Virus record (IMG/VR): IMGVR_UViG_2579778786_000003
Origin: a virus
Taxonomy: Duplodnaviria; Heunggongvirae; Uroviricota; Caudoviricetes; Drexlerviridae
Direction: 5' to 3' (one strand)
DNA length: 4,116 nucleotides
In this document: in pieces, positions 266 through 4,116 of the stretch
Layout of the letters: each line of letters starts with the position of its first letter
Position numbering within the stretch: position 1 is the first letter of the stretch
Made by a program: the position numbers and the translations under genes
The notes under the pieces: generated by a model
Databases searched by the model: none
Told to the model about the DNA's origin: nothing
Seen by the model: the letters and a program-made list of their open reading frames with translations, nothing else

Positions 266-583
266 CTAAACAACCGCATTGTCCTGGCGCACATCGCAGA
301 TAGTAAACGTCACGACGCCGATGACATTAACATCGTCCAAGGCCTCGCCCTCGATCGCTTCGCCATCTTCGGTAATCAGCGACTTTCCTCTCAGCGTGGC
401 AAGCTCCGTCCCGCCGCCGTGCTGGATCAGAACCTGACTACCTTGTGATGGCTTCAGGGAGATATCCAGCACAACGTAACCGCCTGAACGCTCGAAGAGG
501 CGCGTATTTGGCCCAACACTGCAGATCGAGTTAACCGTTAATCGCTGTTCCGTGTAGTCCGTCGCCGGTGATGGAAAGCCCAT
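266..583 (-). CDS. Hypothetical acidic protein (105 aa), second gene of the coupled operon
   Basis: ATG at 583..581 is preceded by GGGGAGGA (598..591) with a 7-nt spacer, embedded in the 3' end of the upstream gene. It runs 105 codons to TAG at 268..266. Protein: MGFPSPATDYTEQRLTVNSICSVGPNTRLFERSGGYVVLDISLKPSQGSQVLIQHGGGTELATLRGKSLITEDGEAIEGEALDDVNVIGVVTFTICDVRQDNAVV. Net acidic, no signal peptide or transmembrane segment apparent. The ORF track uses an upstream GTG (616) that would overlap the first gene by 34 nt; ATG 583 is preferred. Confidence 0.65.
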   Translation of the reverse strand: MGFPSPATDYTEQRLTVNSICSVGPNTRLFERSGGYVVLDISLKPSQGSQVLIQHGGGTELATLRGKSLITEDGEAIEGEALDDVNVIGVVTFTICDVRQDNAVV

Positions 584-822
584 TACAGAATCCTCCCCAT
601 GTTGGCCATCATCCACAGGCAGTTTTCACTATGCTCTGCCGTTTTGTCGACGAAATACGTTTGCTCGCGTGCGATCCAGGAGTTCGCCTCCACCTCGGAA
701 AAATGGATGCCGCGCCGGCGCAGCGCGGTAACGAAGTCGCGGGTGTGAAGGTACTGGAACCCCTTGGAACTGCGCAATACCGACTCGCGGAACGCCGCTG
801 CGATGTCTGACTGTCGAAGCAT
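583..822 (-). CDS. Hypothetical small basic protein (79 aa), first gene of a translationally coupled two-gene operon downstream of the tail fiber
   Basis: ATG at 822..820 is preceded by GGGAGGG (835..829) with a 6-nt spacer. It runs 79 codons to TAA at 585..583, which overlaps the ATG of the next gene (TAATG). Protein: MLRQSDIAAAFRESVLRSSKGFQYLHTRDFVTALRRRGIHFSEVEANSWIAREQTYFVDKTAEHSENCLWMMANMGRIL. It is Arg-rich with no hydrophobic segment. The ORF track starts this frame at an upstream TTG (837); the ATG with the SD is preferred. Local GC is about 60-65 percent. Confidence 0.65.
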   Translation of the reverse strand: MLRQSDIAAAFRESVLRSSKGFQYLHTRDFVTALRRRGIHFSEVEANSWIAREQTYFVDKTAEHSENCLWMMANMGRIL

Positions 823-834
823 GATCTGCCCTCC

Positions 835-866
835 CAATAATACTGCACAAACATACAGTATTATTG
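835..866. repeat. Perfect 11-bp inverted repeat (CAATAATACTG, 10-nt spacer, CAGTATTATTG) in the stf to gene A intergenic region, abutting the gene A Shine-Dalgarno
   Basis: Plus strand 835..845 is CAATAATACTG and 856..866 is CAGTATTATTG, which are exact reverse complements. On the minus-strand transcript the 3' arm ends at nt 835, which is also the first G of the SD GGGAGGG. Confidence 0.7.
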
Positions 867-893
867 TTGTGAGGGAAGATCAATGTAGGAGTT

Positions 894-3800
894 TTACATT
901 AACTTCAAAACAGCAGAAACGATCGGCAGCCCACCTCCAGTTGCAGGGTCAGGATGGATTCCATCAGCATTGAACCAGTTGCGTGGAGATGTCGATGCGT
1001 AATCAGATGGCTTGTCTCCGTAGTCAATCTGGAGATTGTGATAAGCCACCCTGTTTAGCGCACAAACATCCCGTACAACAGACGCATACGCCGCCATTGC
1101 CACATTGTTATTCCTCTGGTTTTCACATGGCATGATCACCAGAACATCAGCCAACGGGCATGCAGTGCGAACTGCTGTGATTATCGTCTGAATATCGGCA
1201 GCAAACGCGGATGGATCACGGGATGATGTCTGGTCATTGGTCCCATGCAGAATTGTCACCAGATTGGGGGCCAGCGCGGTGAATGCTGCTTTCCATGTTG
1301 CGCTGGTAACCTGCGCCGCCCATTGTTGAGCAGAACTCCCCGTCGCACCCAGCTTGTGAGACCGGACACCATCTGTCGCGGTCTGCACATCCAGACCGTA
1401 CAGTTCAACGGTTCCTGATACCGGACTGAACCAGATATTGAAAGCTGTTGCCGGTACCGTGAGGCTGACAACCGCAAGGTCAGTGAACGTGCTCAGGTCG
1501 ATAGTTGTCCAGTTAACTCCACCATCTGTGCTGTATTTAACACTCCCCTGAGGTTTAGCAAAAAGGCGGACTGACGATGCATTTGCCGGTATACCGTTCG
1601 CCCTGAAAGTAGCGGTGGTATCAGAAGACGAGACGCTACAAATATCTGCGCTCTGTGCTGCCGCATATGTCGGAGTCCATGTTCCTGTTTTGGTCAAAGT
1701 TATCTGACCAAGTATATTGCCGTTATACTGCCCGAAACCCGCCTCAGACGGATAGCCAAATCCGATATAGCCGATACCTGCACTGCCATAGTCAGCCTGC
1801 ATTTTTCCGGCAAAAATTCCGCTCCATCGGTTCCACAGGTGAGTCCAGCTATCGCCAATGTGCGCTGTTACCAGTGTTGCTGACTGAGAAAGCCGCCTGT
1901 TCATCAGGCGCTTATGTGTCTCTCTGAGTGAATCCTGATTTAACGTGAATGCTCTGGAAGTTGTGTAATCGACATCCTGTCGGTACGTATCATCACTCAG
2001 TACAGGAGAGCCATTCCCAACAAAGAGCCCCCTGGCAACAACATAAACACCTGCAGCGCCAACAGTCTGCCCATTCATAAGGCGGATTTGCAGATATCCA
2101 GCCGTATCAACAATAGTCTGGGTGATAGCTATTGTGCGAACCAGAGTCTGATATTGCTGGGTTGGGAACTGGAACAACTGAGACGAACTGTCACTAATAA
2201 CAGTCCCGCTAGCCGTCCGGAAATATGCTGCCACGTTGATTGCCTGAGACGATACCACACCCAGCGCTACTGTCAGCGAATCTCCAGCACGCAGTCCAAG
2301 CCGCTTTGCTGAAATGTTAATATCCGTCTGACCACCACCTACTGGGATAATCAGAGATTTTTTCCTAAGAAACGGGCTGCCAGAATAATCCGCAACATAT
2401 GCTGGTAGTGAAACCCCTGCTACTTGAGCAGGACCCCAACCATCAATACACGTTTCCCCGCACTCGTAGCGGCGATACCAGGGATCAGGCCACAGGTTAA
2501 TCTGCTGGCGCTGGTATCCTGAATACTCTGCTGGAAGGCTACCGTAAATAAACTCAGGGCGAGATCGTCCGAAAGCTACACCTATGGCAACCAGCTCCTT
2601 GACCATAGCCCCTGATGCGCGAAGCGTAAGGTATGTCGTTGATGCTGGTATTGTCAGCGTGGTACTTCCATCATTAAAGCCGGATGCTGATGCGGCAATA
2701 GTTGCCGAAGAAAGTACTCCGGATGCATTACGACAGAAAACCTGAAACGTGCCACCCGTTGACGCGAACCATGCAGCCAGACGGACAGTGATTGTGTCTC
2801 CCGGCTTAACCCCCATCGAACTGAGAGAAATAATACGATCAGCACCAACTCCTGACGTGTTTTGGATCCCGGTCTTACCCCATGGTGAATTTGCGCTGTT
2901 CTGAATCAATGTTCCTGCGTAACTCATGGCGTCAACCACGCCTGCAGGAAGTCCTTGCTTAGGACGAACGGAAAGCATCTCGCCAAAAGGGTCGTACACG
3001 AGGTTATCAGGGGTACCCAATGCCTCCTGGTACGCTTTTGAAGGGAAAGACCTTGTGAATTCAGGAGTAACATCACCAATAGCTGCGGCATAGACACCGA
3101 TTTTGAACGCCCCTGACACAGTGTTTTGCACCCGAATTCGTATGGATGATGCGCCAGATGGCACAGCAATGACCACAACCGGAGAGGATATACCAGCAAC
3201 CAGTGGAGAGGCCTCCCCTGTAGTGATGGTTACTCCTGCTGAATCAAGCCAATAAATCTGTAACTTGCCTCCAGCGTTCTCGAACCATACCAAAACAGAG
3301 AAAGCTAAAGTGTCTCCTGGTTTTATCTGTAATTTTGACACATCGTAATATTTATCAAACGATGTTACACCAGAAGCTTGAATAACAGGTGTTGGAAGCG
3401 GCAAATTAACATCAGTAGTAGAAAATGTTGGCGTAGCGCCTTTATACCAATCCCAGTTAGCGAATGTTAAAAGGCTTGAGGAATATTCATTAAATGCGTC
3501 GAATAAAATGTTGCCTCTACGCAAAGCGGAATACGCTGGAATTTTTCTTCCGGTTGCTACCAACGTACCAGCGGTATTGATAACCTCAATTGAAAGATTA
3601 TTGTCATCTGAGCTGCGATAATAAGCAGTTGATCCCACCGGTATATTACCCGCAGCTGCGTCTGCCTGCGCCGCAGCCAGCGTCGGAAACTCGCGGATTG
3701 TCCCTGTTATGGCTGCCGTGCCTGGCTGCTTTGCCTGCAATACGGCCACGCCAGCATTGTTTTGATACTGCCATGCAGCAGAAAGCGCATCTGGCCCCTG

Positions 3801-4116
3801 AGCTACCCAGAACGACTGGCCGTCAGTAGTTGCTGCCAACCCTGCAATGGTGCCATCAGGATCGCTGGCAGTCTTATAGAACGTGAACTTATTCTGTGCG
3901 TAGTCAGAAGCGTTATTTGCATACTCTTCAGCCTGTGCTGCTGAACCTGCGGCTGCCGTTGCCGATTCGGATGAGGCTGCTGTGTTCTGCGCCACTGCGG
4001 ACGCGTTACGCGCCACCTCTTCCACCATCAGTTCAAAACGGCGCAGTGCCTCCGGACGGGCATCATCCTCCGTCATGGCACCGAGAAAATCATTCAGCGT
4101 ACCGGGTCGGGAATCT
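894..4116 (-). CDS. stf: Side tail fiber protein, 5'-partial (start outside window): lambda Stf-like N-terminal segment, three tandem beta-rich modules, C-terminal SGNH/GDSL hydrolase (putative polysaccharide esterase/deacetylase) domain
   Basis: One uninterrupted minus-strand frame from the window end to TAA at 896..894. The frame stays open upstream of the ORF-track Met at 4076: in-frame codons 4115..4077 read DSRPGTLNDFLGA, so the ATG at 4076 is an internal Met. The segment DSRPGTLNDFLGAMTEDDARPEALRRFELMVEEVARNAS matches my recollection of lambda Stf (...PGTLNDFLCAMTEDDARPEVLRRLELMVEEVARNAS...). The C-terminal ~320 aa carry the SGNH signature blocks (see separate feature). Confidence 0.9.
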   Translation of the reverse strand, partial: DSRPGTLNDFLGAMTEDDARPEALRRFELMVEEVARNASAVAQNTAASSESATAAAGSAAQAEEYANNASDYAQNKFTFYKTASDPDGTIAGLAATTDGQSFWVAQGPDALSAAWQYQNNAGVAVLQAKQPGTAAITGTIREFPTLAAAQADAAAGNIPVGSTAYYRSSDDNNLSIEVINTAGTLVATGRKIPAYSALRRGNILFDAFNEYSSSLLTFANWDWYKGATPTFSTTDVNLPLPTPVIQASGVTSFDKYYDVSKLQIKPGDTLAFSVLVWFENAGGKLQIYWLDSAGVTITTGEASPLVAGISSPVVVIAVPSGASSIRIRVQNTVSGAFKIGVYAAAIGDVTPEFTRSFPSKAYQEALGTPDNLVYDPFGEMLSVRPKQGLPAGVVDAMSYAGTLIQNSANSPWGKTGIQNTSGVGADRIISLSSMGVKPGDTITVRLAAWFASTGGTFQVFCRNASGVLSSATIAASASGFNDGSTTLTIPASTTYLTLRASGAMVKELVAIGVAFGRSRPEFIYGSLPAEYSGYQRQQINLWPDPWYRRYECGETCIDGWGPAQVAGVSLPAYVADYSGSPFLRKKSLIIPVGGGQTDINISAKRLGLRAGDSLTVALGVVSSQAINVAAYFRTASGTVISDSSSQLFQFPTQQYQTLVRTIAITQTIVDTAGYLQIRLMNGQTVGAAGVYVVARGLFVGNGSPVLSDDTYRQDVDYTTSRAFTLNQDSLRETHKRLMNRRLSQSATLVTAHIGDSWTHLWNRWSGIFAGKMQADYGSAGIGYIGFGYPSEAGFGQYNGNILGQITLTKTGTWTPTYAAAQSADICSVSSSDTTATFRANGIPANASSVRLFAKPQGSVKYSTDGGVNWTTIDLSTFTDLAVVSLTVPATAFNIWFSPVSGTVELYGLDVQTATDGVRSHKLGATGSSAQQWAAQVTSATWKAAFTALAPNLVTILHGTNDQTSSRDPSAFAADIQTIITAVRTACPLADVLVIMPCENQRNNNVAMAAYASVVRDVCALNRVAYHNLQIDYGDKPSDYASTSPRNWFNADGIHPDPATGGGLPIVSAVLKLM
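897..1862 (-). other. SGNH/GDSL hydrolase catalytic domain inside the tail fiber CDS
   Basis: Block I HIGDSWTH with the nucleophile Ser codon at 1850..1848 (GDS = 1856..1848). Block III LHGTNDQ (GTND = 1244..1233). Block V NADGIHP (DGIHP = 965..951) a few residues from the C-terminus. The order Ser, Asn, then Asp-x-x-His is canonical for SGNH esterases. All codons were checked by hand against the sequence. Confidence 0.8.
2007..3371 (-). other. Three tandem, diverged ~115-130 aa beta-rich repeat modules within the tail fiber (putative carbohydrate-binding modules)
   Basis: The repeated protein pattern is visible by eye. Module 1 (about nt 3371..3027): VSKLQIKPGDTLAFSVLVWFENAGGKLQIYWLDSAGV ... 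IGDVTPEFTRSFPSKAY. Module 2 (about 2864..2517): LSSMGVKPGDTITVRLAAWFASTGGTFQVFCRNASGV ... FGRSRPEFIYGSLPAEY. Module 3 (about 2354..2007) is weaker: LGLRAGDSLTVALGVV ... AAYFRTASGTV. Boundaries are approximate. Confidence 0.55.

Follow-up and report, generated by a model that had tools for sequence, protein, structure and literature searches.

A predicted LexA operator inside an inverted repeat upstream of a prophage cassette encoding a UmuD'-like protein

The perfect inverted repeat that precedes a two-gene operon of a prophage, at the end of its late region, is, judging from its sequence and from the comparison of related loci, very probably a host LexA operator (SOS box) located on a umuDC-type promoter of this operon, which encodes a small protein (gene A) and a UmuD'-like protein (gene B). 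The window analysed here, that is, the whole stretch of 4,116 nt taken from an IMG/VR virus record, matches with 100% identity a lambdoid prophage of E. coli CFS3313 that is integrated near yejM, beside a tRNA-Pro gene. The same prophage match was found in about 12 further complete genomes. Every relevant gene of the window is carried by the minus strand. A tail-fibre gene, of which the window contains the 3' part (4116..894), encodes a C-terminal SGNH/GDSL domain in a frame open to the window edge and is followed by an intergenic gap of 71 nt (893..823), then by gene A (822..583; 79 aa; phrog_3893, E 1.2e-37), the first gene of the two-gene operon, and by gene B (583..266; 105 aa; UmuD'/HumD-like; phrog_3469 'UmuD-like', E 2.8e-46). 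Together, A and B are a two-gene moron directly behind the tail-fibre gene, and the latter is the predicted source of read-through transcription into the cassette. The TAA stop codon of gene A shares one base with the ATG of gene B (TAATG, 585..581), an overlap that suggests translational coupling of gene B to gene A.

Searches of gene A against Pfam, NCBIfam, PADLOC and PDB sequences yielded nothing significant. An exhaustive HMMER search of 1.84 billion proteins delineated only a small gene A family, with 65 cluster representatives and proteins of about 79 aa. The AlphaFold2 model of the protein consists of four helices (pLDDT 74.6), and a Foldseek comparison of this model with the PDB gave no match below E 0.7. 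The relationships of gene B are more readily traced. From its own second residue (MGFPSPA...), the gene B product matches UmuD' residues 25-67, such that M-GFPSPA is aligned with G25-FPSPA of UmuD, i.e., with the Cys24/Gly25 cleavage site, and the catalytic Ser60 of UmuD is replaced by Val. Because the alignment starts at Gly25 and Val takes the place of Ser60, gene B looks like a pre-processed, divergent analogue of UmuD', similar to HumD of phage P1. The divergence is substantial: the match to UmuD' in the PDB (E 1e-4) covers residues 2-44 only, the score on the NCBIfam HumD equivalog is 41.7 bits against a cut-off of 120 bits, and identity to HumD/gp26 is 30-32%.

The SOS box and the candidate promoter

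The inverted repeat occupies positions 835..866 and consists of two 11-nt arms, CAATAATACTG (835-845) and CAGTATTATTG (856-866), that are 100% complementary and lie 10 nt apart. A repeat search reproduced the coordinates and the complementarity that had been reported in an initial, sequence-only reading of this DNA, which also described the fusion of the repeat to the Shine-Dalgarno (SD) sequence. No other perfect inverted repeat of at least 11 bp with a loop of 3-20 nt is present in the window, and at least one such repeat appeared in 15 of 1000 dinucleotide-preserving shuffles of the window (mean 0.021). In the minus-strand direction, the 3' arm (845..835) is followed immediately by GGGAGGG, the SD of gene A (828..834), of which GGAGGG is kept in relatives; CAGATC and the ATG of gene A (822..820) follow.

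The core of the repeat (841..860) is an exact TACTG-N10-CAGTA, which reads TACTGTATGTTTGTGCAGTA on the minus strand and TACTGCACAAACATACAGTA on the plus strand. Its ten fixed bases are the outer ones of the LexA consensus of E. coli, and the segment conforms to the sequence pattern of enterobacterial LexA operators, a TACTG(TA)5CAGTA palindrome with a CTG-N10-CAG core. The exact motif, to which the initial reading did not draw attention, occurred in 2 of 1000 dinucleotide-preserving shuffles. The repeat as a whole is this predicted SOS box extended by six more symmetric bases on each side (CAATAA / TTATTG). The CAATAA / TTATTG flanks are confined to one lineage (L002, L003 and L017), and in other relatives, the flanks are AAAAC / TTTAT.

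The heterology index (HI) matrix that we used was rebuilt from a set of 19 published boxes of E. coli, and its values are approximate; on this scale, the 841-860 site scores 6.7 or 9.4 depending on orientation and is the best 20-mer in the window, compared to a range of 0.3-9.8 among the 19 training boxes and a window-wide 20-mer median of 36. The box has a G at position 15 (GTGCAG), where relatives and known sites have ACAG or CCAG, and this atypical base is expected to weaken the operator relative to the family consensus. The end of the box is 18 nt from the gene A start codon, in agreement with the pattern in Salmonella, where the boxes of the tightly controlled umuD, dinI and sulA genes are located 15-21 nt from the ATG and overlap the transcription start site (PMC8072944).

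A putative sigma-70 promoter can be assigned to the same segment of the minus strand. Its -35 hexamer would be TTGATC (883..878), which begins 10 nt after the tail-fibre stop codon and contains a GATC Dam site. The hexamer is followed by a 17-nt spacer, TTCCCTCACAACAATAA (877..861), of which the pyrimidine-rich distal portion, TTCCCTC (877..871), is complementary to the SD, and then by the probable -10 hexamer TACTGT (860..855), which coincides with the first six bases of the SOS box and accordingly lies inside the repeat. From promoter geometry only, transcription is predicted to start at G848 or G846 (848..846), about 7 nt past the -10 hexamer and inside the loop of the repeat; with a start near G848, the transcript would likely have a leader of about 26 nt that includes the SD. 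In this arrangement, the SOS box appears to cover both the -10 hexamer and the start site, an overlap expected of enterobacterial LexA operators.

The initial reading found no convincing sigma-70 promoter in the intergenic region. This claim is not supported, given that TTGATC stands 17 nt before TACTGT and that this spacing is kept among relatives: TTGAYN occurs exactly 17 nt upstream of a box starting with TACTGT in 53 of the 55 parsed distinct close relatives, and the spacing is retained in divergent subfamilies as well. The hexamer is TTGATC in 46 of these 55 close relatives, and the variants TTGACC/G/T retain TTGA. The earlier search for a -10 element looked outside the repeat, and the inferred one is inside it. 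A consensus promoter scan of positions 1-1200 likewise found no promoter; it missed this one because TACTGT, which agrees with TATAAT in only 3 of 6 bases, falls below the scan threshold. The promoter was recognised solely through comparative data.

The placement of the -10 hexamer within the box draws on the umuDC operon. A 47-bp fragment derived from umuDC, which begins at the -35 position, altered to TTGACA, and ends just past the box, is reported to be an SOS-inducible promoter (PMC9074414). Accordingly, the -10 hexamer should be contained in the box. A recA-like promoter (ATAATA as the -35 hexamer, a 16-nt spacer and TATTAT as the -10 hexamer) was considered from the sequence and rejected: its -35 hexamer is a poor one, relatives do not keep either hexamer, and the transcription start would land within the SD.

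Under this interpretation, a LexA dimer bound at 841-860 in the lysogen would block RNA polymerase. Upon DNA damage, RecA-stimulated self-cleavage of LexA would free the cassette promoter, and proteins A and B would then be produced along with the host SOS regulon.

Homologous cassettes and the umuDC-type regulatory region

We collected 256 IMG/VR loci that contain relatives of gene A. These comprise four subfamilies, with protein identity ranging from 100% to about 35%, and include 223 distinct upstream regions. The CTG-N10-CAG core is kept in 215 of the 223 distinct regions across the four subfamilies; this core was required by the search pattern, so the invariance of CTG and CAG is not independent evidence. 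TTGnnn, mostly TTGATC, is present 16-18 nt upstream of the box in 208 regions, again from all four subfamilies, and gene B (MGFPSPA...) directly follows gene A in 237 of 253 loci. The pattern recurs in each subfamily: the box core was detected in 64 of 69 regions of the window-like subfamily (TTGnnn in 60; gene B next in 75 of 79 loci), in 61 of 64 regions of the mEp390-like subfamily (61; 74 of 80), in all 16 regions of the P0167-like subfamily (16; 15 of 16) and in all 74 regions of the P0174-like subfamily (71; 73 of 78). TTGnnn and the box are separated by 18 nt in the P0174-like subfamily and by 17 nt in the other three, and all four have 14-24 nt between the box end and the start codon.

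The 58 distinct boxes yield the consensus TACTGTATATATATACAGTA, which is the canonical LexA consensus. Among these boxes, positions 1, 2, 6, 8, 15 and 19 are conserved at 88-97%, positions 11, 12 and 20 are variable, and conservation is far higher in the half-sites than in the centre. Among the relatives, the segment that separates the hexamer from the box varies strongly, as expected of a promoter spacer. The gene upstream of the cassette also varies widely and contributes many unrelated tail-fibre or spike C-termini. Because the upstream gene differs between loci, the box must be counted as part of the A-B cassette, not of the preceding gene. The cassette is widespread in lambdoid prophages of E. 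coli, Klebsiella and their relatives; a scan of genome contigs for gene A produced two confirmed loci only. A literature search for a description of the A-B cassette found none, and it is apparently undescribed.

The regulatory region of the cassette can be compared directly with that of the chromosomal umuDC operon. The commonest box of the family, TACTGTATATAAAAACAGTA, is identical to the E. coli umuDC box, the HI of which (2.77) is among the lowest published and which allows no detectable basal expression (PMC2994835). In an alignment with the region upstream of the chromosomal umuD, homology extends from ATTGATAGCC through TTGATCTGC, the spacer and the box, the homologous elements being the ATTGATAGCC motif, TATTGATCTGC, the 17-nt spacer, the box and GGCAGAT just before the ATG. 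This alignment shows that the cassette regulatory region and the promoter-operator of chromosomal umuDC are homologous. The two share TTGATC, a 17-nt spacer, a 20-bp box starting with TACTGT, the distance of 18-19 nt between the box end and the start codon, and a UmuD-family gene downstream. Unlike umuDC, the phage cassette opens with the unrelated 79-aa gene A, its UmuD-like gene comes second and is truncated to the UmuD' form, and umuC is missing. The box of the window itself (TACTGTATGTTTGTGCAGTA) has diverged from that of umuDC and has longer, perfectly symmetric flanks, and the complementarity between the -35/spacer segment and the SD/AUG segment is far stronger in the window (z -5.9 vs -1.7).

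Several phages harbor arrangements of the same kind. In the P1 genome record, a feature located 19 nt before humD is annotated as 'LexA binding site in the regulatory region of lxr and humD', and we confirmed the humD box as TACTGTATAAATGAACAGTA. In N15, the UmuD-like gene 26 comes right after the tail-fibre gene 25 and is preceded by TTGCAT, 17 nt and then TACTGTATAAAAAAACAGTT. The genome of mEp390 contains an unannotated homologue of gene A, with TTGATC, 17 nt and TACTGTATATGCATACAGTC, ahead of the UmuD-like gp26. P1 humD and N15 gene 26 resemble the cassette in that a phage-encoded, pre-processed UmuD' homologue (MGFP...) has an SOS box 14-19 nt from its ATG; for N15, the likeness extends to the location just behind a tail-fibre gene and to the TTGCAT-17-TACTGT arrangement. 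Both P1 and N15 differ from the cassette in having no gene A, and in P1, the LexA site is annotated as common to humD and the divergent gene lxr.

More distant parallels are provided by other prophage accessory genes under host LexA control. The tum gene of phage 186 and P2-like phages (PMC12055606) and the dinI homologues of the Gifsy prophages (PMC8072944) are silenced by LexA and induced by DNA damage independently of the phage repressor. However, Tum and the Gifsy antirepressors trigger prophage induction, whereas nothing points to an action of A or B on a phage repressor, and family and profile searches found no sequence relationship of A or B to tum or the Gifsy genes. In kind, the arrangement has precedents in umuDC itself, in P1 humD, which is a LexA-regulated phage UmuD' gene, and in LexA-controlled prophage genes such as tum; the new details are this specific cassette, the partner gene A and a possible fold-back of read-through RNA.

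The extended palindrome and read-through transcripts

The perfect repeat is nested within an extended imperfect palindrome (822..882, minus strand), with 21-nt arms that are 86% complementary and a register offset of 3 nt. A read-through RNA spanning 882..822 is predicted to form a hairpin of about 25 pairs (-33.1 kcal/mol, z -5.88), and none of 200 shuffles was as stable. In the minimum free energy structure, 882..870 pairs with 834..822, so that GGGAGGG is buried together with the AU of the start codon. If the RNA starts in the loop, it has no significant structure (z +0.8). Late-operon transcripts may thus fold into a long hairpin in which the -35/spacer segment pairs with the 5' UTR, the SD and the start codon and hides the ribosome-binding site, and transcripts from the cassette promoter would start inside the loop and stay open. 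The initial reading listed, among the possible functions of the short repeat, an RNA structure that modulates translation or read-through; this suggestion is plausible, as a hypothesis, only for the 822-882 hairpin, which that reading did not describe.

In lambdoid phages, the Q-modified RNA polymerase ignores terminators. Late transcripts reading into the cassette would presumably be Q-antiterminated and hence could not be stopped by a terminator, so that only translational insulation could keep a late-region moron under its own control. Such insulation has a possible parallel in transposons. The geometry in the window is of the IS10/IS50 type, with the 5' arm upstream of the inferred start and the 3' arm comprising the SD and the start codon. 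According to the statement in PMC13181058 that cites Davis, Simons & Kleckner 1985, IS10 and IS50 are protected from outside transcription by a fold-back in the read-through RNA that sequesters the ribosome-binding site. By analogy, the cassette's own promoter would start inside the potential hairpin, and only the outside transcripts would carry the 5' arm that can pair with the SD. The differences are that the protected gene would be a phage moron rather than a transposase, that the 5' arm here doubles as the -35 hexamer and spacer, with a repressor operator as the loop, and that the comparative support for the proposed phage arrangement is energetic and not covariational.

The competing interpretation is that the cassette has a LexA operator and promoter only, and that the 822-882 palindrome has no function of its own, being a product of the ancestral, umuDC-type partial symmetry combined with a pyrimidine-rich spacer opposite a purine-rich SD. 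We consider this interpretation to be evenly poised between right and wrong. Several observations run against it. In addition to the strong z-score of the window hairpin, the variable spacers pair with the 3' flank at -9.8 kcal/mol, compared to -5.4 kcal/mol for shuffles. The TGATC...GATCA hairpin folds in all 16 spacer lineages, and in 15 of the 16, it is more stable than in shuffles of the lineage's own distal spacer, which is 66% pyrimidine. With the register fixed, 81% of the outer-pair cells are paired, as opposed to 38-51% with slid partners. The sense RNA is more stable than the antisense RNA in 35 of 48 sequences, and there are 54 U.G pairs; this combination points to an RNA rather than a DNA palindrome.

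Other results favour the absence of a separate function. An RNAalifold analysis of 72 sequences recovered only the inner stem of the box and showed no column covariation in the outer stem, where covariation went undetected because the register shifts between sequences. Within the window-like subfamily, the changes are one-sided, with C or U opposite the invariant SD guanines. Composition-preserving shuffles of the pyrimidine-rich spacers show pairing with the SD at about the frequency of the real sequences. E. coli umuDC already has part of the outer pairing (TGATCTGC / GCAGAT), and its fold is weak (z -1.7).

The subfamilies differ in this respect. Flank complementarity exceeds that of shuffles in three of the four (window-like, -16.9 vs -7.7 kcal/mol, z -3.9; P0167-like, -19.5 vs -11.7 kcal/mol, z -2.7; P0174-like, -9.1 vs -6.4 kcal/mol, z -1.1), which speaks against an operator without a fold-back, and is absent from the mEp390-like one (-6.1 vs -7.3 kcal/mol, z +0.5), which speaks for it. 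The two subfamilies with strong complementarity, window-like and P0167-like, are those in which the upstream gene is mostly co-directional (43 of 56 and 14 of 15, respectively, against 16 of 65 in the P0174-like and 26 of 50 in the mEp390-like subfamily, counted over distinct sequences, the remainder being opposite-strand or unresolved). A second strand call, based on ORFs with a start codon, gave 41/56, 13/15, 18/65 and 16/50 for the window-like, P0167-, P0174- and mEp390-like subfamilies, and again, a co-directional majority was seen in the first two only. Inside the subfamilies, the presence of the hairpin does not follow the orientation of the neighbour, so the association between hairpin and orientation rests on four lineages only.

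Taken together, the comparative support for the hairpin is moderate and comes from folding energies. A functional read-through fold-back at 822-882 is conceivable at slightly less than even probability. The fuller scheme is to be taken as tentative and somewhat doubtful: here, the dual-use palindrome, with the -35 hexamer and spacer as its anti-SD arm, would act as an IS10-like fold-back insulator, such that the moron is translated solely from the LexA-regulated transcript and stays silent on late read-through RNA, and A would be a new modulator of UmuD'/Pol V or of RecA.

Other readings of the repeat and biological implications

It is very unlikely that the repeat is mainly an RNA element of the late transcript, be it a 3' stabilising hairpin, an RNase III site or a terminator of the tail-fibre gene, with the likeness to a LexA site being incidental. 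The repeat is within about 30 nt of the tail-fibre stop codon, and the predicted hairpin of about 25 pairs is a plausible RNase III substrate. However, the AT-rich stem is followed by GGGAGGGCAG, in place of the G+C-rich stem and U-tract of a Rho-independent terminator, and a scan for terminator-like sites in 823-893 detected none, so the initial judgement that the repeat is not an intrinsic terminator was upheld. The Rfam 15 covariance models gave no match at E <= 1 in positions 1-1200 on either strand. The rarity of an exact SOS box in shuffles argues against an incidental likeness, and so does the distribution of the box, which travels with gene A, not with the widely differing upstream gene, and persists next to a divergent upstream gene, as in mEp390.

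Still less probable is an operator for a dimeric phage regulator, A or B acting on its own promoter in place of LexA: gene A does encode a small protein predicted to be helical, and the symmetric flanks do extend past the 20-bp LexA box, but conservation falls exactly on the positions of the LexA consensus, with the centre and the flanks varying, the family box is the umuDC box, P1 and N15 have such a box before humD and gene 26 without gene A, gene A matches no DNA-binding family or fold, and gene B, a UmuD' homologue, has no DNA-binding domain. Of the initial proposal that the repeat is an operator for an autoregulating protein, the operator part is well founded in the exact SOS box, its presence across the distinct upstream regions and the umuDC homology, and the autoregulation by A or B is not, the evidence favouring LexA.

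The identity of the repeat and the position of the promoter, both of which had been left open, now have an answer in the predicted LexA operator and its umuDC-type promoter. In this prophage, a captured promoter-operator of the umuDC type appears to place a UmuD' mimic, together with its conserved 79-aa partner, under the SOS response of the host. Such cassettes could change damage-induced mutagenesis in lysogens, with a bearing on antibiotic-induced mutation. If the fold-back proves true, it would show how a moron located behind late genes keeps its own control despite read-through.

The predicted SOS box and -35 hexamer

The predicted LexA operator of the gene A-gene B cassette (SOS box, window 841-860) departs at one position from its counterparts in the closest relatives of the window. 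The difference is at window 846 (minus-strand box position 15), where a G (GTGCAG) stands in the window; its closest relatives L002 and L017 have an A (GTACAG), and A also occurs in 52 of the 58 distinct boxes in the family. The G is a derived change that makes the palindrome one pair shorter and should weaken LexA binding.

The box lies between two symmetrically placed Dam sites (GATC; window 823-826 and 879-882), the second of which falls within the -35 hexamer of the inferred promoter, TTGATC. In all four gene A subfamilies, TTGATC predominates over the consensus TTGACA, and the same hexamer is present in Escherichia coli umuDC. The paired GATC sites together with the prevalence of TTGATC raise the possibility that promoter activity is sensitive to methylation or, alternatively, that the hexamer is selected for its ability to pair with the GAUCA of the start codon region.

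Gain and loss of upstream elements

The chromosomal umuD upstream region of E. coli (L084) and many phage cassettes, for example, L004 and L041, share a ATTGATAGCC motif that precedes the -35 hexamer by about 25 nt. This motif is missing from the window, having been lost in this lineage because the stop codon of the tail-fibre gene is only 10 nt before the -35. E. coli umuDC contains an additional CTG-N10-CAG (ATCTGCTGGCAAGAACAGAC; L084 132-151) within the promoter spacer, which is regarded as a second SOS box (PMC9074414); conservation of this element does not extend to the phage cassettes.

In a few loci, both the promoter and the box upstream of gene A are gone. In L006, L009, L014, L050, L051, and L056, GC-rich sequence adjoins ATTTATCGGAGGG just past the expected end of the box, and in L090, L106, and L157, ...GGGGAAGACCC stands where the left half of the box would be. 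These altered upstream regions resemble junctions formed by recombination or insertion, either at the operator or inside it. The 'invertase/recombinase' annotation of some gene A relatives stems from N-terminal fusions to upstream remnants.

Gene A and the tail-fibre region

In phage mEp390 (L087; NC_019721, around 20750-20990), a homologue of gene A (MPRQLDIRAAF...) is located directly upstream of, and coupled to, the UmuD-like gp26. This homologue is unannotated in the record, where a 'hypothetical protein', gp25, is annotated on the opposite strand instead. Within the gene A coding sequence of the window, a G+C-rich hairpin with a T-run behind it (CCGCGCTGCGCCGGCGCGG CATCCATTTT) resembles a terminator on the minus strand (700-728), probably by chance, because the scanned region contains two terminator-like matches vs 1.0 expected.

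Upstream of gene A, the tail-fibre region (window 894-4116 and L001 8125-13153) has a tail-fibre frame that is open up to the edge of the window. RefSeq splits the tail-fibre gene of CFS3313 in two, annotating an N-terminal pseudogene and, separately, an SGNH protein, and the region downstream of gene B contains remnants of a further tail-fibre gene and a tail-fibre assembly gene. The split gene and the remnants beyond gene B suggest that the module comprising the tail-fibre gene (stf), gene A and gene B recombined into an older tail-fibre region.
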